A stretch of DNA of 64,000 nt from an uncultured Actinomycetota bacterium (lineage in GTDB: Bacteria > Actinomycetota > Actinomycetes > Mycobacteriales > QHCD01), in assembly GCA_963837545.1 (NCBI GenBank), contig CAWINQ010000005.1, positions 49,525 through 113,524 on the forward strand. Reading direction: 5' to 3'. A program made the translations under genes and the position numbers. The notes beneath the pieces were generated by a model. It was given only the letters and a program-made list of their open reading frames with translations, was not told the DNA's origin and did not search any database. Positions 308 to 52,330 of the stretch are shown piece by piece (positions within the stretch are counted from its first letter, which is position 1; each line of letters opens with the position of its first letter).

Positions 308-372
308 GGCATCATCGTGCGCCCTACTCGCACATCCGGGCCGATCATGCGAGTACACGACACGATGTCGAC
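308..372. repeat. Palindromic intergenic repeat, A-type unit, copy 1.
   Basis: ggCATCATCGTGCGCCCTACTCGCA-(loop catccgggccgatca)-TGCGAGTACACGACACGATGtcgac. Inverted arms about 20 bp. Related copies at 1688, 19481, 29016, 37422 and 52165. Confidence 0.8.
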
Positions 373-453
373 CCACCCGGGCACCTGGCGGCCGACTCCG
401 GCATCATCAGGACGCCGCACCTGAGTGTTCGACCACGCGACGAGGAGGGATCG

Positions 454-1551
454 GTGAGCTCGATCGAGGGACACCGGCTGGCGTCGGTCCATGCCTTCGA
501 GATCGTCAGCCGTTACCCGCGGACGGTCGGGCGCAACGCGCGTCTCGGAGCGCACGGCGACGGCCCGACGAGCACAGCGGTGTCCGTGACGACCGCAGCC
601 GGCGCGGTGGGATGGGGCCTCGCGACCGGCCCGGTCGAGCCGACCCGGTCACTCGTCGGCAGACCGGTCACCGAGCTGATCGACCCGTCGATCGGCGTCG
701 TCGAGCCGGCTGCCCTGCCGTTGGACTATGCGCTGCACGACCTCCTCGGCGTCGTCCTCGGCCGGCCCGTGCACGAACTGCTGGGCGGAGCCGGCGAGCA
801 GACCCTCGACTGCTACGACGGGGCGATCTACCTCGACGACCTCGACGTGTCTCCCGACCGGGCCATCGACACGGTCCTGACGAACTGCGCGACGGACCAC
901 GCCGCCGGATTCCGTGCCTTCAAGCTGAAGATCGGTCGCGGCCACCGGTGGATGGCTGCGGCCGAAGGACTGGCCCGCGACATCGAGGTGACCCGGGCGG
1001 TGCGCAAGCACTACCCGGACGCCGACATCCTCGTCGATGCCAACGACGGGTTCACCGTCGCCGACGCGCTGCACTATCTCGACGCGGTCCAGGACTGCGG
1101 ATTGTTCTGGCTCGAGGAGCCCTTCGCCGATGATCGCGACGACCTGACCCGGCTCCGCCGGTATCTGCGCGACACGGCGTCGCCGACATTGGTCGCCGAC
1201 GGCGAGTTCCGGCCGGACGTCCCGTCGCTGCTCTCCCTGGCTGCCGACGGGCTTGTCGACGTGCTGCTGATGGATGTCGTCACGTACGGGCTGACCGCGT
1301 GGCGGAAGGTGATGCCCGAGGTCCGCCGGGCCGGAGTCGCGGCGTCGCCGCACGCGTGGGGCGACCCGCTCAAGACGCTCTACGCGGCGCAGATCGGGGC
1401 CGGGCTGGGCAACGTCCGCACGGTCGAGGGCGTGCCCGGGACGATCGTGGGCGTCGACACCACCGGCTACCGGCTCGACGCGGGACGGCTGAGCGTGCCC
1501 ACGACCGCCGGCTTCGGGATCCCGGTACCGGACGGCGTCCTGGCGCGCTGA
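454..1551 (+). CDS. Enolase-superfamily enzyme (mandelate racemase / muconate lactonizing enzyme-like).
   Basis: ORF 226..1551 in frame. GTG at 454 is preceded by GAGGAGGGA. Mg-binding barrel motifs are present (KLKIGRG, DANDGFT, EEP, DVLLMD). Confidence 0.7.
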   Translation: MSSIEGHRLASVHAFEIVSRYPRTVGRNARLGAHGDGPTSTAVSVTTAAGAVGWGLATGPVEPTRSLVGRPVTELIDPSIGVVEPAALPLDYALHDLLGVVLGRPVHELLGGAGEQTLDCYDGAIYLDDLDVSPDRAIDTVLTNCATDHAAGFRAFKLKIGRGHRWMAAAEGLARDIEVTRAVRKHYPDADILVDANDGFTVADALHYLDAVQDCGLFWLEEPFADDRDDLTRLRRYLRDTASPTLVADGEFRPDVPSLLSLAADGLVDVLLMDVVTYGLTAWRKVMPEVRRAGVAASPHAWGDPLKTLYAAQIGAGLGNVRTVEGVPGTIVGVDTTGYRLDAGRLSVPTTAGFGIPVPDGVLAR

Positions 1552-1607
1552 CCGGCGCCCGGATCACCCGGCTCGCCGACCGCGCTCCTTTCCCTAGCGG
1601 GCCCGTC

Positions 1608-1752
1608 GCCATCATTGGACGCCGTACTCGCAAATAGGACCAAGAAATGCGAGTAGCGCGTCCAATGTCGCCGCGCCGAACCCTCCCGGCATCGTCGTGC
1701 GCCGTACCCGCATCTCCCGACCGAATGTGCGAGTAGCGCGCACGATGTCGCG
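1608..1752. repeat. Composite palindromic repeat: B-type unit (1611-1672) plus A-type unit (1688-1752).
   Basis: B unit: GGACGCCGTACTCGCAaataggaccaagaaaTGCGAGTAGCGCGTCC. A unit: CATCGTCGTGCGCCGTACCCGCA...TGTGCGAGTAGCGCGCACGATG. Confidence 0.8.
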
Positions 1753-1842
1753 GCCGCCCTCCCCCGGGCCGCCGCCCGGCAGGCGACAAATACGGAACAA
1801 GACCACAAAACACCGTAGCGGTGCGTCGCCATCTGTAAGTAG

Positions 1843-1873
1843 TTGACGTTGATTAGTCGATTCTGACTATAGT
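1843..1873 (+). promoter_or_regulatory. Candidate sigma70-like promoter (TTGACG-19 nt-TATAGT) in an AT-rich island upstream of ORF 1915.
   Basis: A local AT-rich patch (gtaagtagttgacgttgattagtcgattctgactatagtg) sits in an otherwise >70% GC sequence. The spacer is 19 nt, which is longer than ideal. Confidence 0.3.
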
Positions 1874-4830: not shown

Positions 4831-5328
4831 TCAGCCGATCTCGTCCAGCCTGCCGGTGGCGACGTCGAAGACGAAGCCGCGGACGGAGTCCTTCTTCGGC
4901 AGGAACGGGCTGGCCATGATCCGCGCGATGGACTGGCGGACGTCGCCGGGGCCGTCCGCGAACGCCTCGGCCGCCCAGTCCGGCTTGATCCCGACGTCGT
5001 CCTGGATCGACTGCTTGAACTCGTCGTCGCGGAAGGTGAGCATCCCGCATTCCGTGTGATGGATGAGGATGATCTCCTCCGTCCCGAGCAGACGCTGGCT
5101 GATCGTGAGGGAGCGGATCGTGTCACCGGTCACGACACCGCCGGCGTTGCGGATGACGTGCGCCTCGCCCTCGCGCAGACCGAGGATCCGGTAGACGTCC
5201 AGGCGGGCGTCCATGCAGGCGACGACCGCGACCTTCTTCGCCGGCGGCGACGGAAGCGAGCCGGAGAACGTCTTGGCGAATTCGCCGTTGTTCGAGAGCA
5301 GTTCGTCGGTGGCCGTCATGGCGTGCAA
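4831..5328 (-). CDS. Beta-class carbonic anhydrase.
   Basis: CMDAR...HTECG zinc-ligand motifs (VVACMDARLD, IILIHHTECGM). Confidence 0.8.
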   Translation of the reverse strand: MHAMTATDELLSNNGEFAKTFSGSLPSPPAKKVAVVACMDARLDVYRILGLREGEAHVIRNAGGVVTGDTIRSLTISQRLLGTEEIILIHHTECGMLTFRDDEFKQSIQDDVGIKPDWAAEAFADGPGDVRQSIARIMASPFLPKKDSVRGFVFDVATGRLDEIG

Positions 5329-8150: not shown

Positions 8151-9110
8151 TCACCAGCTCAGCAGGGCGGCCAGCTCGGCGTTGCGCTGTGCGAACGCCG
8201 TCCAGGCGGCCGGCGTCGTGGCCAGCCTCCGGCGCGCGGCGCGTTCGGAGCACGCCGCCTGCCGCCAGACGCAGAGTCGCCCGGCCCGGACCTCACAGTG
8301 CAGCAGCACCCCGTCGGCCCAGCCGTAGAGGTCGGCGTCCTCCGTTTCGGCCGTCGTCGCTCGCTGGACGCCCGAGATCCAGCCGACCGCCTCGATCTCG
8401 GCCTGCAGCCGGGCCGCGAGCTCGAAGGAGAGCGCCCCGGCGGCGGCGTCCCGCCGTCGTCCGAGCTCGGCCAGCAGGCCGGCCACGGCCTCGCCGTCCC
8501 GGTCGAATACCGCCGCGGCCCGCCGGACGAGGGTCTGCCGGCACCCGGCGTCGACGCCCCGGATCCGGGCCAGGTCGCGACCGGACCCGCGCACGTCCGC
8601 GCCGGCGTACCCCAGCGGGTGCACCCGCTCGACCGCGGACACGGCCAGCCGCGCCTTCTGCCCCCCGAGGTAGGGCCCGAAGACCCACGTCCCGGTCTCC
8701 GGTCGCGACTCGTGGACCACGGTCAGTCCCGGGGACCGCGGCCCGCCGTCGAGCCGGATGAAGACCGGCACCTCGGCACCACCGGCGGTGCGGTTCCACG
8801 GTGACAGCCGCCGTTCGAGCAGGTTGCGCTCGAGCCAGGCCGCCTCGTGTTCAGACGCGCATTCGATCGCCTCCAGCCGGGCGATCCGGGACACCATCCG
8901 GGACAGGTGTCCCCGGTCGCGCAGGTCGCCCCAGTAGGAGGCCACCCGCCGCCTGAGGTTCGTGGCGCGCCCGACGTAGAGGACATCGCCGCGCCCGTCG
9001 CGGAAGCGGTAGACGCCCGGCGCCAGGGGAAGCCGCGGGATGCTCGCCTGCGGCGCCGGGAACGGTCGACGGTCCTCCCGGAGGGGCATCGGTCCATGAT
9101 GGGCCCTCAC
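8151..9110 (-). CDS. GIY-YIG nuclease-domain protein (UvrC N-terminal / Cho-like).
   Basis: GVYRFRDGRGDVLYVGRATNLRRRVASY plus the conserved E/N of the GIY-YIG core (ASEHEAAWLERNLLERRLSPWNR). Confidence 0.7.
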   Translation of the reverse strand: MRAHHGPMPLREDRRPFPAPQASIPRLPLAPGVYRFRDGRGDVLYVGRATNLRRRVASYWGDLRDRGHLSRMVSRIARLEAIECASEHEAAWLERNLLERRLSPWNRTAGGAEVPVFIRLDGGPRSPGLTVVHESRPETGTWVFGPYLGGQKARLAVSAVERVHPLGYAGADVRGSGRDLARIRGVDAGCRQTLVRRAAAVFDRDGEAVAGLLAELGRRRDAAAGALSFELAARLQAEIEAVGWISGVQRATTAETEDADLYGWADGVLLHCEVRAGRLCVWRQAACSERAARRRLATTPAAWTAFAQRNAELAALLSW

Positions 9111-9517
9111 CGGAGCGCGGCGACAGCCTCGACCTCGACGAGTTGGTCCCGGTACCCCAGGGCCGCGACCCCGAGCAACGTGCTCGGGACGTCGTGACCG
9201 CCGAAGTGCCGGGCGACGACGTCCCAGGCGGCGACCAGATCGTCCTGGCTCGAGCTGGCGACGTAGACCGTGGTCTTCACCACGTCCGTCAGCCCGGCGC
9301 CGGCAGCGGCCAAGGCGGTATGCAGGTTGGCCATCACCTGCTCGGCCTGCCCGGCGACGTCGCCGACAGCGACGGTGTCCCCGGCGGTGTCGAGCGGACA
9401 GGCGCCCGCCGTGAACACCAGCCGGGTGACACCGTGCGCGACGGCGGCATACGCATACGGGGCACGGTCGGCAAGTTCGGCGGTCCGGATCAGTTGCACA
9501 GGGCTCGAGGCGCTCAC
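9107..9517 (-). CDS. RidA/YjgF family protein.
   Basis: YjgF-like core (AYAAVAHGVTRLVFTAGACPLD ... TTVYVASS). The start is uncertain: GTG at 9517, or the ORF may extend to 9613. Overlaps the GIY-YIG start by 4 nt. Confidence 0.6.
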   Translation of the reverse strand: MSASSPVQLIRTAELADRAPYAYAAVAHGVTRLVFTAGACPLDTAGDTVAVGDVAGQAEQVMANLHTALAAAGAGLTDVVKTTVYVASSSQDDLVAAWDVVARHFGGHDVPSTLLGVAALGYRDQLVEVEAVAALR

Positions 9518-9672
9518 GCCGACGAGCCTAGGGCTCGACCCGCGCGGCCACGGCTCCGGCGCCCCTTCTCTGGCCTCCCTTCCACTATGCGCAGCCGCGC
9601 GGTCTGAGATCAAGACTGTTTCTGCGTCCGGACAAGCCGCACAATTGGCTCGGGATTCGAGAGGACGGGTGC

Positions 9673-11775
9673 GTGACGGATCAGCCGGGGGAAGGGCAGC
9701 TGCATGCCGAAATCAGGCTCGAGCAGGAGCACGTCGACCGGGTGTACGCCCGCGTAGCGCAGGTGCGGGAGGAGGCACGGGCACTCGAGGCGGAGGGCCA
9801 TCGTCGTGCCCAGCTGGGAAAGTTCATCTACTCGGCGCTCTTCGAGCGCGACGCGATGGTCTACCAGGCCAGTCGCCGGGTTCGCGAACTCGATGTGGCG
9901 CACGAGGGCCTGGTCTTCGGCCGCCTCGACATGGACAGCGCGGAGGTCCGCTACATCGGGCGACTGGGCCTGCGCGACGAGGACTACGACACGATGGTGA
10001 TCGACTGGCGGGCGCCTGCGGCCGCGCCGTTCTACCGGGCCACGGCGAAGGACCGGCACGGCGTCGTACGGCGCCGGGTCATCAACTGCCGCCGGGAGAG
10101 GGTCGTGGGGATCGACGACGACCTGCTCGCCGCCGAGCTCGCGCCCCGCGGGATGCGGGTCATCGGGGACGGCGCGCTGCTCGCTTCCCTGTCCCGTGCG
10201 CGCAGTGGCGGGATGCGCGACATCATCGCGACGATCCAGGCCGAGCAGGACGAGATCATCCGTGCGCCGGCCGACGGCGCGACCCTGATCACCGGCGGTC
10301 CGGGCACCGGCAAGACCGCCGTCGCGCTGCACCGTGCGGCCTATCTGCTCTACCAGGATCGGCGGCGCTTCGAGCGCGGCGGGGTGTTGATCGTGGGGCC
10401 GTCGCCGGCGTTCATCCGGTTCATCGAGCGCGTCCTGCCGTCACTCGGCGAATCCGCGGCGACGCTGCGATCGGTCGGGGAACTCGTCGACGGGACCACC
10501 GGATCGGGTCACGACGAGGCGGGCGTCGGGACCGTGAAGGGCTCGTCGCTGATGGCGCAGGTGCTGCGCAGATCGGTCGCGCTCACCCCGCCCGGCGTGC
10601 CGGATCGACTCCGATTCCCCTATCGGGGCACCGTCCTCCAGCTCGATGCAGCCGCCCTCGCCACGGTGCGCCGCAGGACACTCGCCCGGGAGCGACGGCC
10701 CAACGTCGCGCGGACGCGCGCGGCCGCATTGCTCACCGGAGCGCTGTGGGACCGGCTTACCGCAAACGACCTGGGCCCGGCCGACCTGACCGAGGAGGAG
10801 TTCTCCGACGATCTCGCCGACCGCGGAGTGGTGCGGGAATTCGTCGACAGCTGGTGGCCCATCGTCGACGCGGCCACCGCGCTCACCTGGCTCGCCGACC
10901 CGGACCGGCTTGCCGGGTCGGCCGGCCGAATGCTGCCGGCCGACGACGTCCGCGCCGTCGCCGCCTCCCTCGAACGGGTGGCAAGAGGCGGCGTCCCGTC
11001 CGTCGCCGACGTCGCGTTGATGGACGAGCTCGATGATCTGCTGGGCCGACCCGTCCCTGCGCCGGACCCGTCGGCGGCGCCGGGGGTGGAGGACCCGGAG
11101 GAGGAATACGAGACCGAGTACGCGCACATCGTCGTCGACGAGGCGCAGGACCTGTCCCCGATGCAGTGGCGGGCACTCGGCCGGCGCGGCCGGCGCGCCA
11201 GCTGGACGATAGTCGGAGACCCCCTGCAGTCCTCCCGTCCGGACGACGACCTCGACGCCAGGACGGCGATGGACGACGCGACCGGACACGCCCCGCGGCG
11301 TGATTTCCACCTCGACGTCAACTACCGCAACCCCGAGGAGATCTTCGCGCTGGCCGCGCGCATCGCCCGGGCCGGTGCGCCCGGTGCGAGGCTGCCGAGG
11401 GCCGTGCGCTCTACGGGCCATCAGCCGCAGCACGTGCTGGCCAGTGCGGCCTCGCTGGGCGACGAGGTCCGGGCAGCGGTGGCCCGCACCCTCGAGCAGG
11501 TGGAGGGCGATGTCGGCGTCATCACCCCGATGTCGCTCCGGGCCGACACGCTGGCATGGATCGGGGCCGCGTTCGGGAGCCGCGTCCAGGTCATCGACGG
11601 GCTGGAGGCCAAGGGGCTGGAGTTCGACGGGGTGGTGCTGGTCGAGCCACCACGACTCGGCGGGCCGGCCGAGCACGGGGACCACCTGCGTTACGTCGCA
11701 CTCACCCGCGCGACCCAGCGACTGGTCACCGTCACGACGGATCCGCGCTGGCTCGATCTGGTGGCGGGCGGCTGA
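9673..11775 (+). CDS. helD: HelD-family (UvrD-like, helicase IV-like) RNA-polymerase-associated helicase.
   Basis: 700 aa. Walker A ITGGPGTGKT. Architecture typical of actinobacterial HelD. Confidence 0.8.
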   Translation: MTDQPGEGQLHAEIRLEQEHVDRVYARVAQVREEARALEAEGHRRAQLGKFIYSALFERDAMVYQASRRVRELDVAHEGLVFGRLDMDSAEVRYIGRLGLRDEDYDTMVIDWRAPAAAPFYRATAKDRHGVVRRRVINCRRERVVGIDDDLLAAELAPRGMRVIGDGALLASLSRARSGGMRDIIATIQAEQDEIIRAPADGATLITGGPGTGKTAVALHRAAYLLYQDRRRFERGGVLIVGPSPAFIRFIERVLPSLGESAATLRSVGELVDGTTGSGHDEAGVGTVKGSSLMAQVLRRSVALTPPGVPDRLRFPYRGTVLQLDAAALATVRRRTLARERRPNVARTRAAALLTGALWDRLTANDLGPADLTEEEFSDDLADRGVVREFVDSWWPIVDAATALTWLADPDRLAGSAGRMLPADDVRAVAASLERVARGGVPSVADVALMDELDDLLGRPVPAPDPSAAPGVEDPEEEYETEYAHIVVDEAQDLSPMQWRALGRRGRRASWTIVGDPLQSSRPDDDLDARTAMDDATGHAPRRDFHLDVNYRNPEEIFALAARIARAGAPGARLPRAVRSTGHQPQHVLASAASLGDEVRAAVARTLEQVEGDVGVITPMSLRADTLAWIGAAFGSRVQVIDGLEAKGLEFDGVVLVEPPRLGGPAEHGDHLRYVALTRATQRLVTVTTDPRWLDLVAGG

Positions 11776-11776
11776 A

Positions 11777-15195: not shown

Positions 15196-16126
15196 GTGGT
15201 GCGGCGAGCACGATTTCTCCGAGCGTCGGGTGTCGCGCTGGTGGCGGCCGCGATCACGGTGTCCGGCTGCAGCACCGGGTCCCCGGTTGCCCGGGGCGCA
15301 GGTCCCGGACCGATCCAGGTGGTGGCCGCGGAGAACTTCTGGGGCAGCATCGCCGGCCAACTGGGAGGCAGAGCAGGTGGCGGTCACCAGCATCATCGAC
15401 AACCCCGACACCGATCCGCACGACTACGAACCGACCGCCGTCGATGCGCGCACGGTCGCTACCGCGGCGCTCGTCATCGTCAACGGAATCGGCTACGACC
15501 CGTGGGCCACGAGGCTCGTCCAGGCCAACCCGTCCCGCGACCAGAGGGTGCTCACGGTAGGCACGCTCGTCGACGTACCGGACGGCGGAAATCCGCACCG
15601 TTGGTATTCACCGCCGGACGTCGCCGCGGTCGTCGATGCGATCACCGCCGACTACAAGCGGATCGACCCGGCCCACGCGGCCTACTTCGACGCGCGCCGG
15701 CAGGCCTTCGACGGCAGCGCACTCGCCCGGTACCACCACCTGGTCTCGGCCATCAGGGCAAGGTACGGCGGCACCCGGATCGGCGCCTCGGAGAGCATCG
15801 TCGCGCCGCTGGCCAAGGCCCTCGGTCTGCGGCTGCTCACCCCACCGGCCTTCCTCCGGGCGATCAGCGAGGGAACCGATCCGACGGCCGGCGACAAGTC
15901 GACGATCGACCGGCAGATCACCGACCACGAGATCAAGGTCTACGTCTACAACTCGCAGAACGCCACCCCCGACGTCCGCAGCCAGATCGCCGCCGCGCGG
16001 GCCGCCGGGATCCCGGTGACGAGCGTGACCGAGACCCTCACGCCGGCCGGGGCGAGCTTCCAGGCCTGGCAGGTCCGCGAGTTCGAGCAGCTCGAGGCCG
16101 CACTGGCGAAGGGTAGCCGGCGATGA
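15196..16126 (+). pseudogene. znuA: ZnuA-like metal ABC substrate-binding lipoprotein, with an apparent +1 frameshift near 15370-15373.
   Basis: Lipobox VSGC and NFWGSIAGQLGG lie in frame 1. The rest (QVAVTSIIDNPDTDPHDYEP...) lies in frame 2. A 4-nt stretch 'agag' where 3 nt are expected links the two frames. Confidence 0.65.
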
Positions 16127-18721: not shown

Positions 18722-18737
18722 CCCCGGTGGCCCGACG

Positions 18738-19122
18738 CTACATGGCCGCGATCTGGATGAGGTTGCCGCAGGTGTCGTCGAACACGGCCGTCGTGACGGG
18801 ACCCATCTGCGTGGGAGGCTGGGTGAAGGTCACACCGAGACCGTGAAGTCGCTCGTACTCGGCCTGAACGTCCTTGACGGAGAACGAGGTGAACGGGATT
18901 CCGTCGTCGACGAGCGCCTCCTTGAACGGGCCGACGGCCGGGTGGGCAGCCGGGCTCGAGCAACAGCTCGACACCGTCGGGATCCTCGGGCGAGACGACG
19001 GTCAGCCACCGCGCTTCGCCCATAGGCACGTCGTTCTTCTGCACGAAGCCGAGCACGTCGGTGTAGAACGCGAGAGCCTTGTCCTGGTCGTCGACCAGGA
19101 CGCTGGTGATGGTGATCCTCAT
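18738..19122 (-). pseudogene. VOC (glyoxalase / bleomycin-resistance) family protein, with an apparent 1-nt frameshift near 18950.
   Basis: N-terminal half (MRITITSVLVDDQDKALAFYTDVLGF...LLLEP) and C-terminal half (AAHPAVGPFKEAL...GVTFTQPP) are in different frames. One extra G in a CCCGG run separates them. Confidence 0.6.
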
Positions 19123-19412: not shown

Positions 19413-19432
19413 AGGCAAGTAGCCACTTGCCT
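19413..19432. promoter_or_regulatory. Inverted repeat AGGCAAGT-AGCC-ACTTGCCT abutting the arsR-family start codon. Candidate autoregulatory operator.
   Basis: Perfect 8-4-8 palindrome immediately upstream of the ATG. A TTGACA hexamer lies just beyond it on the coding strand. Confidence 0.5.
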
Positions 19433-19480
19433 GTCAAGAAGACCTCCACCAACCCGGGCTTTCGCGGCGGCCGGTGGCGG

Positions 19481-19546
19481 GCATCATCGTGCGTCGTACT
19501 CGCCTATCCGGGCCGATCCTGCGAGTAGGGCGCACGATGATGATGC
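19481..19546. repeat. Palindromic intergenic repeat, A-type unit, copy 3.
   Basis: GCATCATCGTGCGTCGTACTCGC-ctatccgggccgatcc-TGCGAGTAGGGCGCACGATGATGATGC. Confidence 0.8.
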
Positions 19547-28977: not shown

Positions 28978-29015
28978 TCTGGCCGCGGCTGCTCCGGCGC
29001 CGTTCGGCGAAGGGT

Positions 29016-29078
29016 CGACATCGTGCGCCCCACTCGCACGATCGACCCGGATATGCGAGTACGACGCACGATGATGCC
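29016..29078. repeat. Palindromic intergenic repeat, A-type unit, copy 4.
   Basis: gaCATCGTGCGCCCCACTCGCA-cgatcgacccggata-TGCGAGTACGACGCACGATGatgcc. Confidence 0.8.
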
Positions 29079-37374: not shown

Positions 37375-37412
37375 GCCCGGCCCGGACGCCCGGACGCCCG
37401 GACGCCCGGACC
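37375..37412. repeat. (GCCCGGAC)n microsatellite, about 4.5 units.
   Basis: cccggacgcccggacgcccggacgcccggacc, immediately 5' of repeat copy 5. Confidence 0.8.
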
Positions 37413-37421: not shown

Positions 37422-37486
37422 GGCATCATCGTGCGCCGTACTCGCATAACCGGGCCGATCGTGCGAGTAGAGCGCACGATGTCGAC
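37422..37486. repeat. Palindromic intergenic repeat, A-type unit, copy 5.
   Basis: GGCATCATCGTGCGCCGTACTCGCA-taaccgggccgatcg-TGCGAGTAGAGCGCACGATGTCGAC. Confidence 0.8.
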
Positions 37487-37528
37487 TGTTACCGGCAGCC
37501 GGCCCCGTTCACGGTCTTCTGAGCGGGG

Positions 37529-37978
37529 TCAGTCCCGGGAGAGCAGGCGGTAGGTGAGGCCGGTCGCCAGGGCGTAGACCGCGTGGTGGCCACCGTCGAT
37601 GGCGGCCTCAGTGGCCCCGTAGCGCCAGATCGGCCGGCCCACCTTCAGGCTGGGCAGGACCACCTGCTCGGAGCCCCAGACGGCGGCGAAGTGCACCAGC
37701 GTCGCGACCGGGCCGGACGCTCCCAGGCCGGCAATGGCGCCGCGTACCGCACCCCACCCGGTGCCGTAGCCCCAGTGCACCGCATTGTTGAACCGCATGC
37801 CGTCGCCTTCCACGGGCTCCACGCCGAGCACTTTGGCGGCCGCGTCGGCCGGTGCGGTGCTCGGCTGCCGGCCACGTACCCGGGCCTCCAGCGTCGACGA
37901 GACCGTCATGGCCGCCGTACCGACGAGGCCGGCAACCAGTCCTCGTCCCATGGCTCCGGCGATATCCCCGATCCGCAT
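37529..37978 (-). CDS. Small membrane protein (DUF1440-like).
   Basis: Start placed at MRIGDIAG. Gly/Ala-rich TM segments. Confidence 0.45.
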   Translation of the reverse strand: MRIGDIAGAMGRGLVAGLVGTAAMTVSSTLEARVRGRQPSTAPADAAAKVLGVEPVEGDGMRFNNAVHWGYGTGWGAVRGAIAGLGASGPVATLVHFAAVWGSEQVVLPSLKVGRPIWRYGATEAAIDGGHHAVYALATGLTYRLLSRD

Positions 37979-38168
37979 ACGGCATCCCCTCGTCGGACCG
38001 TCTCCCGCGGTGGCGGCCAGATCCGAGCGTACGACGCCGGCCCGCCGCCGGGGTGCTGCGCACACATCCTCGGCCAGCGGGCTGTCAGCGGCTGCCAGCC
38101 GAATGTGCGGGCCCTGACAGGCGGACTTGTCACGGTGTGGTCATGACCAAGGACCCAGGAGGGACGAC

Positions 38169-43203: not shown

Positions 43204-44151
43204 TTACCTGGTCGGGATCCGTCCGTCGAAATAGGTCCCGACGGCCCGCAGGGCGCGTCGCTGTTCCAGATCCACCACGGTCCGGTTGCGGCCGGCGTCC
43301 TCGACGTCGCGAACCGCGAGGTACATCGCCTCCACGGCGGCCTGGGTGGACGGGAACGGTCCGTGGTCGCGGACGACGCCGCGCAGCCGGGCATCCACGA
43401 CGTCGAGCAGCGGAGTGGTGAAGACGATCTGCCGGACCCCGATCGGGAGGGCGAGGAACGGCGCGAGCGCGGCCCAGTTCACCCGCCAGAGCCGGACGAG
43501 TGCGGGGTAGCGCTGGCCGAACCTCGCGGCGAAGTCGTCGAGCGCCGCGGCGGCGGACATCTCGTCCGGCGCGGTGTAGACGGGGAGGAGCGCCGCGCTG
43601 ACCGCCGCCCAACTCCGGCGGGGCCCGTACTGCCGCGACGCCCGGATCAGGCCGAGCACCCGGGTCTGGCGGATCGCCCGCGGCCAGGTCACCCCGATCG
43701 CGTCCGGCAGCCCGGGCACCCCCTCACCGCTGACACCGTCACCGGCGACACCGTCACCGCCGACCCAGTCGCAGCTGACCAGGCACACGTCGGACATCCC
43801 GCGAGCAGTCACCCGTTCGAACAGGTCGAGCCAGAACGTCGAGGACTCCCCCGGGTCAGGGGCGGGCCACAGGCCGAGCACCTGCTCGACGCCGGCACAG
43901 TCCACCCCGCCGACGACGTAGATCGGGCGGGTGCGAGCGCTCGGATGGCCGATCCGGACCGACACCTCGTTGACGAACACCACTGGCCAGACGGCGTCGA
44001 GCGGCCGGCCCTGCCAGGCCGTCAGGGCCTCGACGACGGTGTCGGGCAGCTGCCCGATCAGGTGGGCCGACCCGTTGGTGCCACGGCGGGCCGTCCCGGT
44101 CCGCCCGGCGACCCGGGCTTCATCCGGTGCCTGATGCACGGTGTCGGTCAT
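43204..44151 (-). mobile_element. IS256 (mutator) family transposase remnant: N-terminally truncated and probably catalytically dead.
   Basis: The WQGRPLDAVWPVVFVNEVSV...YVVGGVDCAGVEQVLGLW...FWLDLFERVTARG...LPDAIGVTWPRAIRQTRVLGLIRAS block is homologous to IS256/IS1081 transposases. The first DDE Asp is Asn (VFVNEV). It lacks the N-terminal 130 aa or so. An internal 15-bp tandem repeat encodes GDGVAGDGVSGEGV. Confidence 0.7.
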
Positions 44152-46611: not shown

Positions 46612-49218
46612 TCAGTCCCGGCCGACCACCAGCGGGGCCCCGGGCGCGACGACGAGGTCGGGCTCGAAGAACAACCGTGTCTCGTCGCCGTCCATGCCGC
46701 GGCGGTGGTCGACCTTCTCCGTGCCGACCGTGACCGACGACGACGTCCAGTCGCCGGCGACCCGCAGTTCCCGCACTCCGACGGTGCCGTGCAGGCAGGT
46801 CAGCGTCAGGCCGTGCGCGTCCGCGGACGCCGTCCCCCACCCGGTGTCGGTGAGGACCGGCACCCGCCAGTCGGCCTCGGCGCCGATCGGGTGCAGCCGC
46901 AGGCTGCGCGCCACGGCGTTCCACCGCAGGCCGGTCAGCGACTCGAGCACGGACCACCCGGCCATCGCCCGGACGTAGTGGTCGCCGCACTCGATCTCGT
47001 TGTAGGGGTTGCGCCGGGTGCCGTCGTGGCGGGCCCACAGCCCGCGCAGGATCCGCATGCCCTCGTCTTGCAGGCCTTCGTCCAGGCAGTGCGCCGCGAC
47101 CTGATATTCGACACCGCTCCACACCTCGTCGGCGTAACGCGTCGGGATGTCCGGGCGCCCGCCGGTCGGCCAGGAACAGATCAGCAGCCCGCGGTCGTCG
47201 CCGTCGGCGTAGACCCGGTAGGGGTGGTCGAAGCCGCGGAACCCCTCGCGCAGGTTGTGCCGAACGATGGACCGCAACGCCGTCCGCACGTGGTCGACCG
47301 GCAGGATGTAGCCGAGCTCGAGCTGATGGGCCCACCACTGCCCCACGAGCTGGTCGGACAGACATCCCTCGCCCCACTGGTACGCCGTGGGTTCGGCGGG
47401 GTCGAGCAGTTGCCGGTAGTACTCACCGGTCCAGGTCAGCTCGTCGTACGCCGTGCTGCCGGCCCGGAAGAGCGAGTGGTAGCCGGCCGCGGCCTCGTCG
47501 TCGCCGAGCAGCCGGGCCATCTCCTCGGCCGCCCGCAGTGCGGCGAGCCAGTAGCTGCCCATGAAGGTGTTGACGCCGCACAGGTCGATGTCGTGCGTAC
47601 TCGGCTGGATGCCGCGCAGCACGCCGGTCCGATCGGGATCCCATGTGCCGCCGATGTGGTCGAGCAGCCGCATGATCCGCGGCCACATCCGCTCCAGCCA
47701 CGGCAGACCCGCTCCGGCCCGCACCTCGCGGTAGGTCTTGAGGACGGTGCCGAGCATCCCGTCCAGCGCGGGTCCGGTGGGGCCGCCGATCGGCACGTCC
47801 CACATCTGCCGGAGGTAGACCGGCGCCACCGCCCGGTGCGGGATGTAGCCCTCCGGCGCCTGCATGATCTCCAGCTCGGTCTCCCGCATGCTGCGTTCCA
47901 GCTCGGGGAAGAGCCGCGAGACCGCCTGGGCGTAGTTCCAGACGTGCGTGCAGTTGAGGGGGCAGGAGCCGCCGTAGTCGCCGTTCCACATCGCCGTCGA
48001 CGCGCCGAGGGTGCCCTCGAAGCCGAAGAAACGCCCGTCCGCGGTGTGGAAGCAGGTAGGGCTGCGGAGCAGGGACAACTGTGCCGCCATCCGCTCGACG
48101 ACATCGTCCGGCAGCGAACTTGCCGACAGGACGCCCATCCAATCGCGGGAGCGGTCACGCAGCCGATGCCAATCCGTGCGCACCGTCTCCGCGACGTCCT
48201 CGGCGTCGGCGAAGTGGGTCGCGTAGTCGTTGCCGAGCCACAACCTGCTCCGGGAATCGGCCTGCGCCGGCCCGAACTGATCGAAGTTGACGTAGCGGTT
48301 GGGGAAGTACCAGGAGAGCACGACACGTATGGCGACCGTCTCCCCCGGGCCGAGACGGAAGGGGATCCGCAGGCCGCCGTTCCAGGTGGCGCCGGGCGCG
48401 CTCGGCCCGACCGCGGGGCGCGGGCCGCTGCGGACCGAACCGCCCCGCAGGAAGGTGGCGAAGTCGGCCGCCGTCGACCACTGCGGATACACATCCGCGT
48501 CGGTGGTGTCGGCGGACAGCACCATCTGGCCGAACCCCGGGTCGTCGTCGGCCAACGACGGGTTATCCATGAGCAGCGACGTCCACCCGCCGCGACGGCG
48601 CGCGCGGTTGACGTTCCCGCCGTACGACGCGCACCGGTTGTCGACGATCGGCGTGATCCCGTCCCAGCCGACGGCGTTCTGCAGCGTCGCGCCGAGCGAC
48701 CCGTGCAGCTCGTGGGCATCGTCGTTGCGCAGCGTGAAGGTGAACAGCGCCGCGGGCAACGCACTGGCCGCGACATCGAGCGGGACGAGCGGCGTGAACG
48801 CCTCCATGGTCACGCTCACCGGCAGGTCGTCGTCGTGGAAGTCGACCTCGCCGAAGGGATACAGGCCGCGGAACGTGGTCCGGTCGACCGGCCGCAGGAT
48901 CTGCGTCAGCTTCGTGAGCTCGGCCGGCACGACGTGGTCGGACACCAGCGGCGCGGGACCGGGCACCGGATCGACCGGTGCGGACTGCAGGAGGCGCAGC
49001 TCGTCGAGCGGCGGCTCCGGGCGGGACACCCGCAGCGCGAAGAAGCTGCCCGGCAGATAGCCGAGGTGGTTGCCGATGTTGTGCAGCTGCCACTGCCGGA
49101 GGCTGCCGTCTCCGCAGATCGCGAGCTGCCCCGTGCCGATGCCGCCGAGCGGCATCGCGAGCGCCGCCCGGCGGTCCCCGTCGTACGCCATCGACCGGCC
49201 GGCATGTTCAGCAGTCAT
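46612..49218 (-). CDS. GH116-family glycoside hydrolase (GBA2-type beta-glucosidase / glucosylceramidase-like), N-terminal beta-sandwich plus (alpha/alpha)6 domain.
   Basis: About 868 aa. Start placed at MTAEHAG. Pattern LPLGGIGTG...GDYGGSCPLNCTHVWNY. Confidence 0.65.
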   Translation of the reverse strand: MTAEHAGRSMAYDGDRRAALAMPLGGIGTGQLAICGDGSLRQWQLHNIGNHLGYLPGSFFALRVSRPEPPLDELRLLQSAPVDPVPGPAPLVSDHVVPAELTKLTQILRPVDRTTFRGLYPFGEVDFHDDDLPVSVTMEAFTPLVPLDVAASALPAALFTFTLRNDDAHELHGSLGATLQNAVGWDGITPIVDNRCASYGGNVNRARRRGGWTSLLMDNPSLADDDPGFGQMVLSADTTDADVYPQWSTAADFATFLRGGSVRSGPRPAVGPSAPGATWNGGLRIPFRLGPGETVAIRVVLSWYFPNRYVNFDQFGPAQADSRSRLWLGNDYATHFADAEDVAETVRTDWHRLRDRSRDWMGVLSASSLPDDVVERMAAQLSLLRSPTCFHTADGRFFGFEGTLGASTAMWNGDYGGSCPLNCTHVWNYAQAVSRLFPELERSMRETELEIMQAPEGYIPHRAVAPVYLRQMWDVPIGGPTGPALDGMLGTVLKTYREVRAGAGLPWLERMWPRIMRLLDHIGGTWDPDRTGVLRGIQPSTHDIDLCGVNTFMGSYWLAALRAAEEMARLLGDDEAAAGYHSLFRAGSTAYDELTWTGEYYRQLLDPAEPTAYQWGEGCLSDQLVGQWWAHQLELGYILPVDHVRTALRSIVRHNLREGFRGFDHPYRVYADGDDRGLLICSWPTGGRPDIPTRYADEVWSGVEYQVAAHCLDEGLQDEGMRILRGLWARHDGTRRNPYNEIECGDHYVRAMAGWSVLESLTGLRWNAVARSLRLHPIGAEADWRVPVLTDTGWGTASADAHGLTLTCLHGTVGVRELRVAGDWTSSSVTVGTEKVDHRRGMDGDETRLFFEPDLVVAPGAPLVVGRD

Positions 49219-49775
49219 GTCGTCTCTCCCTCCGCGGCGTTGCGCTGAAAGGCCCGGTCGTCTCCGCGCGCGTTCCACGCATCCAGGACCGACGTCACCA
49301 CGGCCGGTGACACACCCGCGGTGGTGTCGACGTCGAGGTCGTACGGGCCGAAGGTGTGGATCAGATCGGTCTCCACGTGCGTCCGGCCCTCGCCGATGGC
49401 CCGGTCGCGCCGCGCCTTCTCCCGACGGTCGATCTCGTCCAGGTCACAGTGCACGCCGACGAGGAAGACGTCCAGGCCGGCGAGCAACTCGGCGAGGTGA
49501 TCCCGCCAGGCCGGGAACTCGATGATGTGTTCGACGATCAGGTCGTTGCGCGCCTGTGCGAGAGCCGGCAGGCACCGGTGGAATCCCTCGAAGAATCGCG
49601 GGCGGACCCGCTCCCACCAGTCGAACGGTCCGCCGTCGTTCCGCCGTTCCGGCAGCATGCCGCTGTCGACCAGGTGGTCGGACGAGACGTGCAGGAACGG
49701 TTCGGGCAACGCGCGCTGCAAGGCGGTGGCCAGGGTCGACTTCCCCGAACTGGAGGCGCCGTTGAGGAAGATCAT
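49215..49775 (-). CDS. Chloramphenicol-phosphotransferase-like (CPT) P-loop kinase family protein.
   Basis: Walker A FLNGASSSGKST. Start placed at MIFLNG. Confidence 0.6.
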   Translation of the reverse strand: MIFLNGASSSGKSTLATALQRALPEPFLHVSSDHLVDSGMLPERRNDGGPFDWWERVRPRFFEGFHRCLPALAQARNDLIVEHIIEFPAWRDHLAELLAGLDVFLVGVHCDLDEIDRREKARRDRAIGEGRTHVETDLIHTFGPYDLDVDTTAGVSPAVVTSVLDAWNARGDDRAFQRNAAEGETT

Positions 49776-49823
49776 CCGGCCGGGGCCGCGCTCCGGCGGT
49801 CGTGGCTCGCGTGGCGGCATGGC

Positions 49824-50758
49824 CTACCGGCGGTCGAGCGGCAGCGCAGCGCCGCGTACCGGCAGGAGGACGGCGTAGACCGAGGTCGTCGCACAGATGA
49901 ACAGCCGGTTGCGCTTGGGCCCCCCGAAGACGACGTTGGCGACCGTCTCGGGGATCCGGATCTTGCCGATCAGCGACCCGTCCGGGTCGTAGCAGTGCAC
50001 ACCGTCCTCGGCGCTGGTCCAGATCCGACCTTCGTCGTCCAGCCGGAACCCGTCGAAGAGACCGTTGGTGCAGGTGGCGAAGACCTTGCCGCCGGACAAC
50101 GTGCCGTCGGCATGCACGTCGAACAGGCGCATGTGGTGCGGGCCGTCGGCCTGGTGGGTGGCTCCGGTGTCGGAGATGTAGAGCTGACTCTCGTCGAGGG
50201 AGAAGGCCAGGCCGTTGGGGCGCACGAAGTCGTCCGCGACGATGCGGCACGCGCCGGTGTCGGCGTCGACGCGGTACACATGACAGGCTCCGATCTCGCT
50301 CTCCGCCTGCCACCCCTCGTAGTCGCTGTCGATGCCGTACGCCGGGTCAGTGAACCAGATCGAGCCGTCGGAATGGACGACGGCATCGTTCGGACTGTTG
50401 AACCGCTTGCCGTCGTACCGGTCGGCGATCACGGTCACCGAGCCGTCGAATTCGGTCCGGGTCACCCGCCGGTTGCCGTGTTCGCAGCTGATCAACCGGC
50501 CGACGGCGTCGATGGTGTGCCCGTTGGTGTAGCCGGCCGGTGTCCGGAAGACACCCACCTCGCCGTTCGTCTCGTCCCAGCGCATGATCCGGTCGTTGGG
50601 GATGTCGCTCCATACGAGGTAACGGCCGGCGGGGAAGTAGGCGGGACCTTCGGCCCAGCGGCATCCGTCGTACAGCTTCTCGATCCGCGCGCTGGTCTTG
50701 ATGCAGGTGCTGAACCGGTCGTCGAGAATCTCGAAGGTCGGCTCACCGGTCATGGACA
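49824..50758 (-). CDS. SMP-30 / gluconolactonase / LRE-family beta-propeller protein.
   Basis: GGAGGCAGG RBS and ATG. Repeated NDxxxDxxGxxW/F blades (FNSPNDAVVHSDGSIWFTD, RPNGLAFSLDESQLYISD). Confidence 0.7.
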
Positions 50759-50861
50759 TTCCTGCCTCCAGCCTCTGGTGATGGACGGGCCCGGCAAGCC
50801 TGGCACAGGGTCCGGCGTCGCGCGAAGCCACCGGTCGGCGGGGCGGACCCGCCCCTAGCCT

Positions 50862-52029
50862 GTGGCCATGGGTCCGGGAGCGAACGGCGGCGAGTGGGAC
50901 GTCGTGGTCGTCGGCGCGGGTCCGGCGGGCGCCTGCGCGGCGCGGTCGGCGGCCGAGGCCGGCGCCCGGACGCTGCTGATCGAACGAGCTCACCTGCCGC
51001 GCTACAAGACCTGCGGCGGCGGCCTGGTCGGGGCCAGCCTCGCGGCTCTGCCTCCCGGCGTCCGGCCGCCTACCCGCGAGCGGATCGCCGCGGTCACCTT
51101 CAGCCTCGGCGGAGGCTTGCGGCGTACCCATCAGGATCCGGCTCAGATGGTCGAGATGATCAACCGCGACGAGTTCGACGCGGCACTCACCAGCAGCGCG
51201 GTCTCGCAGGGAGTCACGCTGCTCCCGGGCACCGTGCTGCGCCAGATCGAGACCGCGGACGACCACGTCATGCTGACCACATCGGCCGGCGCGGTCACCG
51301 CGCGAGCCGTGGTGGTGCAGACGGGACCTCGGGGCGGACGGGTCGCCACGTCGGGGTGACCTGCGGACAGGTCGATCTGGGGCTCGAGGTCGAGGTCGCG
51401 GCCGACCCCGCGACCGCCGCGGCCTGGGCCGGGCGGATCCAGCTCGACTGGGGCCGCTGCCGGGCTCCTACGGGTGGGTCTTCCCCAAGGGCGATGCGCT
51501 GACGGTCGGGGTGATCTCGACCCGCGGCGATGGCGACGCGGTCCGCGACTACCTGCACCGGTTCGTGGGCCAGCTCGGGCTCGCGGACCACCGGGTGATC
51601 CGTTCATCGGGGCACCTGACCCGGTGCCGCGACGACCGCTCGCCGCTCGCACGGGGCCGGGTGCTGGTCGCCGGCGATGCGGCCGGACTGCTCGAGCCGT
51701 GGACCCGGGAGGGCATCTCTTTCGCGCTCCGGTCCGGGCGGATCGCGGGGGCCGCAGCCGCGCGCATCGCCCGAGCCGGGGACGAGCGGGTGGCCGAGCT
51801 GGGTACGACGTACGCCGCCGAGATCGACGGGAGCCTGGGCGCCGAGATGCGGGCCGGGCGCGCGATCATGGCGGCGTTCTCCCGGCGGCCCCGCGCGTTC
51901 CATGCCGCGATCGCGGCCGGCGGGCCGACGTGGCGGACGTTCATGCGGTTGACCCGCGGGGAGACCACCCTCCCGCGGGTGATGCGGCACCGCCCGGTCG
52001 CCGCGCTGGTCTCCGCCCTCGCCCGCTGA
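50862..52029 (+). pseudogene. Geranylgeranyl-reductase-family FAD-dependent oxidoreductase, disrupted by two frameshifts (about 51357 and about 51447).
   Basis: N-terminus (VVVVGAGPAGACAARSAAEAGARTLLIER...CGGGL) in frame 0. Middle (GLEVEVAADPATAAAWAGRIQLDWG) in frame 2. C-terminus (PGSYGWVFPKGDALTVGV...VLVAGDAAGLLEPWTREGI) in frame 1. Confidence 0.6.
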
Positions 52030-52073
52030 TCCCGGACCACCTCGTCGCGTGGCGTCATCGCTTCCCGCACCGC

Positions 52074-52330
52074 CGTCGGCGGCAACATCGGACGCCGTAC
52101 TCGCAAAACCGGCCGGGAAATGCGGGTAGCGGGTCCAACGTCGCCCCCGCCGGCCGGCACCCGCATCATCGTGCGCCCTACTCGCACAATCGGCCGGGAA
52201 ATGCGAGTAGCACGCACGATGTCGCCGGACTGCGGCCGCCCGACCCGTCGGCGGCAACATCGGACGCCGTATTCGCAAAACCGGCCGGGAAATGCGAGTA
52301 GCGGGTCCAACGTCGCCCCCGCCGGCCGGC
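52074..52330. repeat. Composite palindromic repeat array: B unit - A unit - B unit.
   Basis: B1 52083-52147, A 52165-52224, B2 52254-52320. The B units and their flanks (gtcggcggcaacatcggacgccgtaYtcgcaaaaccggccgggaaatgcgRgtagcgggtccaacgtcgcccccgccggccggc) are about 85-bp direct repeats. Confidence 0.85.

Follow-up and report, generated by a model that had tools for sequence, protein, structure and literature searches.

A family of dispersed extragenic palindromes, probably of the REP/BIME kind and apparently restricted to one lineage of uncultured actinobacteria

What are the palindromic elements that recur between the genes of a 64-kb stretch of DNA from an uncultured actinobacterium (the whole stretch is referred to as the window), and what keeps them so uniform? 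Most work on REP-type repeats concerns Proteobacteria, in which their spread is explained by a Y1 transposase (RAYT). REP and REPIN units are imperfect palindromes of about 20-40 bp with a 5-13-bp stem and an unpaired GTAG (or CGTC) at one end. A sequence-only reading of the window had described nine units, six of A type and three of B type, at six loci, and had interpreted them as a REP/MITE-like mobile or structural repeat rather than the operator of one regulon. A profile built from the nine units bore out this census: searched against the 64 kb, it returned exactly those nine (E 1e-20 to 1e-16), and the best match outside the units had an E-value of 0.21. The core TACTCGCA-N15-TGCGAGTA has four exact occurrences in the window compared with 0.00 expected from shuffles, and the 8-mers TACTCGCA and TGCGAGTA are absent from the window outside the units. 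The dimensions had to be revised: the loop, given as 14-16 nt, is 15 nt long in all nine units of the window, and pairing reaches about 25 nt per arm instead of about 20 bp. The nine units are the following.

308..373, plus strand: A-type unit with arms CATCATCGTGCGCCCTACTCGCA / TGCGAGTACACGACACGATGTCG and loop CATCCGGGCCGATCA, followed after about 83 nt by an enolase-superfamily gene with its probable GTG start at 456.
1608..1673, plus strand: B-type unit, first of a B>A pair, with outer stem TTGGACGCC / GCGCGTCCAA; 56 nt lie between the stop of the enolase-superfamily gene and the start of the unit.
1688..1753, plus strand: A-type unit, second of the B>A pair, arranged head to tail, with 80 bp from the one unit start to the other.
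19480..19545, plus strand: A-type unit between a divergent ArsR-type HTH gene (19119-19418, minus strand) and a ROK-family regulator gene (plus strand).
29013..29078, minus strand: A-type unit, the sole inverted one among the nine, preceded at a distance of 36 nt by a plus-strand gene (stop at 28977) and followed 30 nt on by a methyltransferase gene.
37422..37487, plus strand: A-type unit with the best score of the nine against the family profile, with minus-strand genes on both sides, LPG-synthase-TM (36112-37344) and an unannotated ORF (37529-38065).
52081..52146, plus strand: B-type unit that opens a B>A>B array; the genes on either side converge, 51511-52029 (plus strand) and a GH3 glycosidase gene (52439-54949, minus strand).
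52162..52227, plus strand: A-type unit, middle of the B>A>B array, with a B-like loop CAATCGGCCGGGAAA.
52253..52318, plus strand: B-type unit that closes the B>A>B array, a near-duplicate of 52081-52146 with its flanks included.

The gene contexts proposed earlier hold for the unit at 19480 (divergent), for those at 29013 and 37422 (tandem) and for the array at 52081 (convergent). At 308 the proposed divergent context is plausible: the gene to the right points away from the unit, but bases 1-200 gave no confirmed coding frame. The pair at 1608 lies between tandem genes.

Each unit of 65-70 bp consists of two arms of about 25 nt around a 15-nt loop. The arms form an inner 8-bp stem, a conserved asymmetric 3x3 internal loop, with CCG on the 5' side and G-S-R on the 3' side, and an outer stem of 9-12 bp. 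Folded as single-stranded DNA, the units reach -19 to -21 kcal/mol (z -4.1 to -5.7). The loop is exactly 15 nt in 88 of 95 units, and its sequence is free. The two-fold symmetry is broken at a conserved site, where G TACTCGCA stands on one side and C TACTCGCA on the other. The tetranucleotide GTAG is present in 89 of 95 units (TGCGAGTAG); it is located internally, within the stem and internal loop and not at the hairpin end; its first three bases pair in the inner stem, and the final G alone is unpaired. Two compensatory base-pair swaps distinguish the A and B arms. The two stem positions change in concert, being T-A/G-C in 58 A units and G-C/A-T in 29 B units, with at most eight mixed cases. 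In an alignment of the 88 units with a 15-nt loop, 91% of the stem cells are paired and the covariation score is 0.129 compared with 0.077 after shuffling, a value that none of 500 shuffles reached; many units are kin by recent duplication, so that some of the family statistics are inflated.

A search for the motif beyond the window found it at no fewer than 89 further sites in two related MAGs from Danish soil (CAVZJT01 and CAWHER01, roughly 4 Mb each). The two genomes hold at least 54 and at least 35 copies, both lower bounds because they were counted in blocks holding an exact pattern match. Together with the nine units of the window and one on a stray contig, the collection comprises 99 units. 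The family is also present in a few other assemblies of the same rare uncultured actinobacterial lineage and was not found in plasmids, phages or JGI metagenomes. The whole window gave no Rfam match at the gathering threshold, and the units gave none at E <= 1 when the array of the window and one locus with an HNH gene and an array were searched. The searchable literature yielded no description of the family either. These results agree with the earlier impression that it is not a described family; apparently it is undescribed so far and lineage-restricted.

The 54 unit clusters comprise 24 between tandem, 16 between convergent and 8 between divergent genes, and 6 cut by a locus edge. They are intergenic, save for a few overlaps with doubtful crude ORF calls, and the distance from a stop codon to the start of a unit is 4-190 nt. 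Most sites are located at gene 3' ends; at least one gene ends upstream of 40 of the 48 classifiable clusters. Convergent sites do not significantly outnumber divergent ones (p 0.15), and the orientation of the units is unbiased (14 vs 8, p 0.29). Among the neighbours are an enolase-superfamily enzyme, an FAD monooxygenase, ArsR and ROK regulators, a methyltransferase, an LPG-synthase TM protein and a GH3 glycosidase. Because the units are intergenic beside such functionally unrelated genes, and mostly at 3' ends, we could rule out a regulon operator. The copies elsewhere, in all types of context and beside unrelated genes, uphold the original preference for a dispersed repeat.

The units follow strict rules when they are clustered. 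Neighbouring units are A-B in 33 cases, A-A in 6 and B-B in none (chi-square p 2e-6), and 40 neighbour pairs are head to tail compared with 5 inverted (p 8e-8). Their spacing clusters at about 72.5, 80-83, 89.5-94 and 103 bp, with linker sequences that are unrelated between independent loci. The spacing has a period of 10.0 bp (Rayleigh R 0.74, p < 5e-5), also in a conservative subset (p 0.005).

Comparison between species separates the parts of the unit. Among 16 positionally orthologous pairs, the arms are 89% identical, the loops 61% and the flanks 65.5%, where a flipped-flank control gives about 60%; loops and flanks have thus become randomised around arms that were kept. Orthologous sites vary in the number and type of units. 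The ortholog of the unit at 52253-52318 in the MAG MFD01213 is of A type, and that site has 3.5 kb of extra DNA: opposite 52029-52252 of the window, two direct A units flank a 3.5-kb PPDK_N/PEP-utilizers gene. A 3.2-kb difference between two other loci also ends at units (L023 vs L039), and in a further pair synteny is lost at a unit (L019 vs L048). The units mark indel and rearrangement boundaries, where short-read assemblies will break. None of the compared loci showed a solo unit cleanly present in one genome and absent from another, and there is no fixed-length target-site duplication, as the best flank repeat has a mean of 3.07 nt compared with 2.67 nt for shuffled pairings, with no preferred length. 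The label "mobile" is thus justified by turnover at orthologous sites and by the joint movement of units with a DUF222-HNH gene, and not for solo units. "MITE-like" finds no support, given the lack of a target-site duplication and of a parent insertion sequence (IS) in the window or the loci.

The DUF222-HNH gene, of the 13E12 type, is absent from the 64-kb window, and about 45 of the 54 clusters do not adjoin it. REP sequence, by which we mean sequence of the present units, directly adjoins the gene in all 14 copies examined in its clade, nine of them from loci with the REP pattern and five retrieved via the protein alone (L053, L057, L058, L059 and L060). In 13 copies this is a full unit or array; in L059, the first 20 nt or so of a unit are followed by the contig end. 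The gene is multicopy, with copies 87-96% identical. The A and B units that adjoin it have loop sequences common between gene copies, which indicates that both were copied along with the gene. Furthermore, one locus with a single A unit (L045) and another with A + B + A' and the HNH gene (L046) represent an insertion polymorphism. Four solo A units of the window have loops (TCCGGGCCGATC) similar to the A loop linked to the HNH gene, TCCGGGACCCGATTG. Upstream of the linked gene lies the promoter motif TTGTCGGTG-N8-TATCGT, which we take to be a RecA-NDp/PafBC DNA-damage-type motif, and a LexA-box-like TCGAAC-N4-GTTCGA lies upstream of a distant homolog. Such repeats were not found beside DUF222-HNH genes at 44-53% identity, and the link between gene and units is therefore specific to one clade (60% identity or more).

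We favour, with moderate confidence, the explanation that the units are lineage-restricted dispersed extragenic palindromes of the REP/BIME kind, with a protein that would bind their arms. The units can fold as two-tier hairpins with the stems, internal loop and 15-nt loop described above. Since the arm sequence itself is conserved, and not pairing alone, a sequence-specific protein recognizing the arms is the most economical reading. Arm uniformity could be kept by selection or by repeated copying or conversion, with loops and linkers free to drift. The head-to-tail A/B arrays change over time by gain, loss and type switch of units, and they are where larger insertions and deletions end. The arm-binding protein may be the DUF222-HNH nuclease, and the solo units may descend from HNH-linked master copies.

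A more specific reading, which we put forward only tentatively and hold to be rather unlikely, is that the units are the cis-acting DNA of a DUF222-HNH mobile gene: the arms would be recognized or nicked by the nuclease, the A-B array would form the 3' end of the gene, and the gene would home beside resident units and seed solo ones. If true, this would be an HNH-based counterpart of the RAYT/REP "REPtron" and provide the first candidate substrate for the long-unexplained 13E12/DUF222 family, and a defined candidate substrate of 65 bp makes the question of this family directly testable in vitro. The link could also reflect only the amplification of one gene copy with its neighbouring array.

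The constant loop and the 10-bp phasing are more in keeping with duplex binding than with a hairpin, and it is conceivable, although we doubt it, that the units are arrays of duplex binding sites. Two related dimeric proteins, one A-specific and the other B-specific, would bind inverted half-sites and co-operate along phased arrays in a nucleoid-organising or insulating role, and hairpin potential would be a by-product of two-fold symmetry. The inner half-site spacer of 15 bp with free sequence, the quantised centre-to-centre spacing despite unrelated linkers, the A/B alternation and the arm sequence kept between species beyond pairing all suit this reading, and the "compensatory" A/B changes are also expected from a switch in homodimer specificity. 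However, 25-bp arms are long for half-sites, no candidate protein is known, and the conserved break of symmetry and the head-to-tail polarity argue against it. Units at indel boundaries that travel with a nuclease gene suggest DNA transactions over simple binding. Duplex binding and the REP/BIME-like explanation are not mutually exclusive. A plain intrinsic terminator was rejected because of the missing T run, the clusters between divergent starts and the unbiased orientation. RNA hairpins conserved for the flanking genes, as factor-independent "I-shaped" bidirectional terminators or protectors of mRNA 3' ends, are an unlikely alternative in spite of the very stable hairpins, the predominance of sites downstream of genes, with twice as many convergent as divergent ones, and the ability of a near-palindrome to act both ways, which fits the lack of orientation bias. 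No T/U tract follows the stem (T at most 22% at every flank position), a terminator scan of the array in the window finds none, the convergent excess is not significant, and eight clusters lie between divergent starts, as does the unit at 19480 in the window and possibly that at 308. Such a function depends on pairing and calls neither for a constant 25-nt sequence nor for a loop of exactly 15 nt nor for arrays of 3-5 units. Moreover, of the termination sites mapped in M. tuberculosis, only 2-4% are overlapped by TRIT, the analogous conserved palindrome (bioRxiv 10.1101/2022.06.01.494293).

We regard it as improbable that a single-copy RAYT elsewhere in the genome mobilises the units in trans, as it would classical REP/REPIN elements, although an extragenic imperfect palindrome family with subtypes and arrays, the frequent GTAG and the absence of target-site duplications, as in Y1 transposition, would fit. 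RAYT genes are normally flanked by their own REPs, so that our pattern scan should have captured one; the gene that it captured repeatedly is DUF222-HNH. Neither tblastn with RAYT/IS200 consensus sequences nor a six-frame scan for the HUH...Y motif found a Y1-like ORF in the window and 47 REP-bearing 8-kb blocks (0.38 Mb), both being weak tests. The GTAG lies within the stem and internal loop with no unpaired 5' head, the units are twice the usual REP size, and the pairs are head to tail and not inverted REPIN doublets. It is very improbable that the units are MITEs, deletion derivatives of a DDE-type IS of which only the two terminal inverted repeats are left. The 25-bp inverted ends around a short centre and an IS256-family transposase fragment in the window (43204-44151) point in this direction; the missing fixed-length target-site duplication speaks against it, and regular head-to-tail A/B arrays are foreign to MITE behaviour. 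No other arm-like sequence occurs in the window or the loci, and hence no IS with matching ends was seen.

The units have several features in common with the REP/BIME elements of Enterobacteria and Pseudomonas. Both are imperfect palindromes scattered outside genes, with copy numbers from dozens to hundreds; both have a sequence specific to their lineage, contain GTAG, show no target-site duplication and are tied to rearrangements and insertions. Subtypes alternate within clusters, like the Y and Z types of BIMEs. The present units differ by their length, two-tier stem and 15-nt loop, and by a GTAG that is internal and partly paired. Whereas BIMEs alternate in orientation and have conserved linker motifs, neighbours here keep the same orientation in 40 of 45 pairs and their linkers share a length class only; in REPINs, inverted doublets predominate. 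The recurrently linked gene is a DUF222-HNH nuclease, and no RAYT was found in the DNA sampled. The family is a clean case of REP-like palindromes, with compensatory subtypes, array rules, helical phasing and constant arms. CGTC-tagged REPs also have no dedicated Y1 transposase identified, and the text of their survey does not mention Actinobacteria, the phylum of the present host (Di Nocera et al. 2013, PMC3733652). The units share none of the 8-9-bp stems, 4-5-nt loops, terminal unpaired CGTC and mostly head-to-head dimers of those elements (PMC3733652).

Within the Mycobacteriales, TRIT is likewise a fixed-sequence palindrome restricted to a genus or lineage; it is a conserved "terminator" motif of Mycobacterium with about 150 copies near gene ends, and a binding factor was deduced from its sequence conservation (PMC3152330). 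TRIT overlaps the stop codon (around position -8), whereas the present units lie tens of nucleotides from genes and also between divergent starts. No arrays, A/B types or HNH link have been reported for TRIT, which is set apart here by description and not by sequence. In M. tuberculosis the 13E12 family is DNA-damage-induced and multicopy, and to our knowledge no palindromic cis-element has been described for its genes. The linked gene resembles the REP13E12 genes of M. tuberculosis in its DUF222 + HNH Pfam architecture, multiple copies, insertion polymorphism and DNA-damage-type promoter motif, and differs by the palindrome link of its clade. The 13E12 genes of M. tuberculosis, whose function is unknown, mark inversion breakpoints (PMC13157036).

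A profile built from the nine units of the window recovered only these nine within it (E 1e-20 to 1e-16; next match, E 0.21), and all of them lie where a sequence-only reading had placed them, with A units at 308, 1688, 19480, 29013, 37422 and 52162 and B units at 1608, 52081 and 52253. Their alignment gave the consensus GGC(A/G)(T/A)CATCG(TG/GA)CGCCGTACTCGCA - 15 nt - TGCGAGTAG(S)(R)CG(CA/TC)CGATGTCG(C/A)C. Four exact copies of the core TACTCGCA-N15-TGCGAGTA are present in the window, with 0.00 expected, and the core 8-mers have no occurrence there outside the units. Eight units share one orientation, and the unit at 29013-29078 is opposite to them. The earlier description of the hairpin needs correction in two respects: the loop, given as 14-16 nt, is 15 nt in all nine units, and the arms, given as about 20 bp, were taken too short, as pairing extends over about 25 nt per arm.

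We based the anatomy of the repeat on 95 anchored units, drawn both from the window and from genomes related to it. An inner stem of 8 bp (99% of cells paired) is followed by an asymmetric internal loop, with G/C-C-C on the 5' side (read outwards) and G-S-R on the 3' side, and by an outer stem of 9-12 pairs. Because the internal loop breaks the two-fold symmetry, each unit is polar. The arms are near-invariant, exceeding 90% at most positions, and the loop is variable in sequence, yet 15 nt long in 88 of the 95 units. Types A and B differ by two adjacent outer-stem pairs that switch jointly, being T-A/G-C in 58 units, G-C/A-T in 29 and mixed in at most 8. Among the 88 units with a 15-nt loop, double-sided changes at these two pairs number 25 and 24, 91% of the cells are paired overall, and the covariation score of 0.129 compares with 0.077 after shuffling (0 of 500 shuffles reaching it), with the reservation that kinship by descent among many units inflates some of the statistics. 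A strand test comparing G-T with A-C mismatches in the stems gave a signal dominated by a few subfamily-specific changes. One stable B subfamily of 13 units (e.g. L011 3683, L038 2469 and L040 515, where L-numbers denote blocks or contigs retrieved from other assemblies) carries GTCCTACGTCG in place of GTCCGATGTCG in the right arm. Two outer-stem pairs are thereby lost, and the left arm has no compensating change, so pairing is dispensable at those positions.

The units are also arranged by rule. Neighbouring units form 33 A-B, 6 A-A and no B-B pairs, against about 17, 17 and 4 expected (p 2e-6), and 40 of 45 neighbouring pairs have the same orientation (p 8e-8). At loci without the HNH gene described below, the centre-to-centre distances cluster at 72.5-73, 80-83, 89.5-94 and 103 bp, and the linkers between units are unrelated in sequence. 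The distances gave a Rayleigh peak at a period of 10.0 bp (R 0.74; p < 5e-5 against a uniform null, and p 0.005 in a conservative subset of n=16).

A scan for the exact pattern in one genome per species (185,579 species) returned 51 blocks, 46 of which came from two uncultured Actinomycetota MAGs of the Microflora Danica project, MFD01213.bin.1.215 and MFD00822.bin.2.25. Four blocks were chance matches without a profile match. Block L012 (DASXOA010000451.1), an 8-kb stray contig labelled Rugosimonospora sp., has a true B unit and matches the MFD01213 block L040 at 87% identity over 606 bp; it probably stems from the same lineage, through an error in binning or labelling. By profile, the retrieved blocks of the two MAGs hold at least 54 and at least 35 units; these are minimum counts, as retrieval was limited to blocks containing an exact match. 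The 'Mycobacteriales bacterium' MAG GCA_036497565.1, one JGI contig and one Logan contig have diverged units, and a second JGI contig has part of a unit, cut off by the contig end; all were reached via the HNH protein.

That the repeat is not a described family, as first proposed, agrees with the searches of Rfam, plasmids, phages, JGI metagenomes by pattern and the searchable literature. Rfam gave no match to the units (whole window at the gathering threshold; window array and a locus of HNH gene plus array at E <= 1), and a B+A pair had no blastn match among the plasmids of PLSDB or the phages of INPHARED. A degenerate pattern for both types had a single match in JGI metagenomes, in coding-like sequence and with no unit, and the core sequences retrieved only unrelated primers from the literature.

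The window at 47404-60113 (12.7 kb) is 82-91% identical to contig_36199 of MFD01213 and thus comes from a related but different genome. This syntenic MAG contig, 74 kb long, holds 3 of the 27 REP-bearing blocks. With 9 units in 64 kb, the window exceeds the approximate MAG average (10-20 per Mb) several-fold, the MAGs having been read as 8-kb blocks, most of them chosen for holding a unit. This region may be a local hot spot.

Between the two MAGs, 11 orthologous block pairs (80-89% DNA identity) could be compared, and the window adds one further site. REP clusters keep their intergenic position across orthologous sites. Over 16 positionally orthologous unit pairs, identity is 89% for the arms (94-100% if the type is the same), 61% for the loops and 65.5% for the 50-nt flanks, close to the value of about 60% in a flipped control. 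For arms to stay constant while their surroundings are randomised, their sequence must be under selection or undergo ongoing homogenisation. The sites nevertheless differ in the number or type of units (1 versus 3 units, A-A versus A-B, window B versus MAG A), and in five comparisons the end of a larger difference coincides exactly with a REP cluster. At the site of the B-A-B array of the window, MFD01213 has two direct A units around a 3.5-kb gene segment with the PPDK_N + PEP-utilizers architecture of PEP synthase and rifampicin phosphotransferase:

L032 7749-8000 and L015 1-3352 (MFD01213 contig_36199, 15749-19352): PPDK_N + PEP-utilizers gene segment, 901-aa product
Window 52029-52252: corresponding site without the segment

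Since this segment lies between direct A units and is missing from the window, it is a repeat-bounded indel. Furthermore, L023 and L039 show a 3.2-kb difference ending at the cluster, and synteny is lost at the unit between L019 and L048 and between L003 and L004. In the fifth comparison, L045 and L046 differ by the HNH element described below. A third block of contig_36199, L050, shares no synteny with the window except the repeats, so it offers no more orthologous sites for comparison.

An all-against-all comparison of the REP-bearing blocks revealed one multicopy segment, which encodes a protein with DUF222 and HNH domains (Pfam E 2e-60 and 1.5e-4), an architecture shared with the 13E12 repeat family of mycobacteria. 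The element was delimited at the following positions:

L014, 644-2268: DUF222-HNH element
L021, 2278-4051: DUF222-HNH element
L024, 5722-7529: DUF222-HNH element
L046, 3014-4725: DUF222-HNH element
L050, 5651-7550: DUF222-HNH element
L034, 3240-5005: DUF222-HNH element
L017, 372-2318: DUF222-HNH element
L060, 3900-7011: DUF222-HNH element

MFD01213 has six copies, 87-96% identical, several of which look frameshifted; the frameshifts may be Nanopore errors. The copies share a sharp 5' boundary, GTGAC(C/G)(G/T)AAAGTT (GTGACSKAAAGTT), and a conserved leader. On the 3' side of the stop codon they carry an A unit, a conserved spacer, a B unit and often further units, in one common orientation, as an A-B(-A-B) array. 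A second paralog (L035, L020 and L058) has the units upstream instead. The loops of the A and B units beside the gene are common to the copies, whereas loops are free elsewhere, so these units were copied along with the gene.

Five copies were found via the protein, without use of the repeat pattern. The gene lies beside A-B-A in L053, two A units in L057 and one upstream unit in L058; in L060 it is split by an IS3-family insertion and followed by five units; and in L059 only the first ~20 nt of an A unit precede the contig end. REP sequence thus adjoins the gene in 14 of 14 copies examined, with L059 as a contig-cut fragment. The insertion in L060 (5030-6310, with rve-domain ORFs) interrupts the gene at about residue 330. 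The two MAG species show an insertion polymorphism: a single A unit in L045 (1317-1433) corresponds to A + B + A' and the HNH gene in L046 (3011-4725). In L046 the insert separates the A unit from a small terminator-like hairpin that belongs to the neighbouring gene, and the JGI contig L059 has the same left junction. DUF222-HNH homologs at 44-53% identity have no such repeats alongside, and the window holds no copy of the gene. Other recurrent neighbours of the units belong to generic families only.

The leader contains TTGTCGGTG-N8-TATCGT, which we take to be the RecA-NDp/PafBC DNA-damage promoter motif of mycobacteria. The distant homolog in L054 (53% identity, without hairpin repeats) has TCGAACACAGGTTCGA upstream at ~4885-4905, presumably a mycobacterial LexA box, and the homolog in L056 (44% identity) has TTGTCGTAC-N8-TAGGGT. 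All three leaders inspected, namely the type-1 leader, L054 and L056, would on this assumption carry DNA-damage-type motifs upstream. The RecA-NDp/PafBC motif is named, without its sequence, in PMC6789036.

Exact-protein look-up of three close HNH homologs (P0002, P0008 and P0010) returned no record, and the DUF222-HNH protein had no match in the PDB by sequence. In a Foldseek search of the PDB with an AlphaFold model (mean pLDDT 76), the HNH part alone resembled HNH nucleases of the McrA/TagI/Gme and nicking-enzyme types, and the helical DUF222 domain had no significant structural match.

We file the units as REP/BIME-like dispersed extragenic palindromes; arrays of duplex binding sites, RNA 3'-end hairpins, classical REPs mobilised by a RAYT (a Y1 transposase) and MITEs compete as readings. 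All 54 clusters are intergenic, 24 between tandem genes, 16 convergent, 8 divergent and 6 at locus edges, by crude GC3-based gene calls in which single assignments can be wrong. In the window, the neighbours encode an enolase-superfamily enzyme, an FAD monooxygenase, ArsR-type and ROK regulators, a BNR-like protein, a methyltransferase, an LPG-synthase membrane protein and a GH3 glycosidase. These genes form no regulon, which excludes an operator and upholds the initial view of a dispersed repeat. Hairpins at RNA 3' ends would fit the folding of the units, calculated for single-stranded DNA at -19 to -21 kcal/mol (z -4.1 to -5.7). A canonical terminator was rejected, as no T tract follows the units and some lie between divergent starts; moreover, orientation relative to the upstream gene shows no bias (14 versus 8). 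TRIT, a comparable conserved palindrome of M. tuberculosis (PMC3152330), overlaps only 2-4% of the termination sites mapped there (bioRxiv 10.1101/2022.06.01.494293).

Known REPs resemble the units as dispersed palindromes, but the units are larger, polar, arrayed head-to-tail and helically phased, and they reside in an actinobacterium beside a DUF222-HNH gene rather than a RAYT. No Y1-transposase-like (RAYT/IS200) ORF was detected in the window or in 0.38 Mb of REP-flanking DNA by tblastn or motif scan, both weak tests. As for MITEs, target-site duplications of fixed length were not found, and the IS256/Mutator ORF of the window (43204-44151) is unrelated in sequence to the hairpin arms. A free hairpin would have no need of the fixed 15-bp loop and the ~10-bp phasing, a geometric constraint that suggests recognition of the units as duplex or a distance-measuring copying mechanism. 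From the conservation pattern we infer that a sequence-specific protein would bind the units. The constant linkage and co-mobility, seen in one clade, make the DUF222-HNH nuclease a conceivable but rather doubtful candidate for this putative protein.

Several further features of the window were recorded. A short tandem repeat, (GGACGCCC)x3 at 37384-37407, lies directly left of the A unit at 37422. A separate 76-bp palindrome (52342-52417), next to the B-A-B array on its right side and downstream of the gene for the GH3 glycosidase, has two AACGTGACGTT boxes spaced by 30 bp (4 matches on both strands against 0.57 expected) and looks like a candidate paired operator of a regulator; a chance-level Rfam match to mir-253 falls on it, off the units. 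The IS256/Mutator-family transposase ORF (315 aa) matches profile positions 129-374 only and is probably incomplete. At 8151-11775, a gene for a GIY-YIG-domain protein (minus strand) adjoins a UvrD-like helicase gene (plus strand), and the two could form a repair or defence pair.
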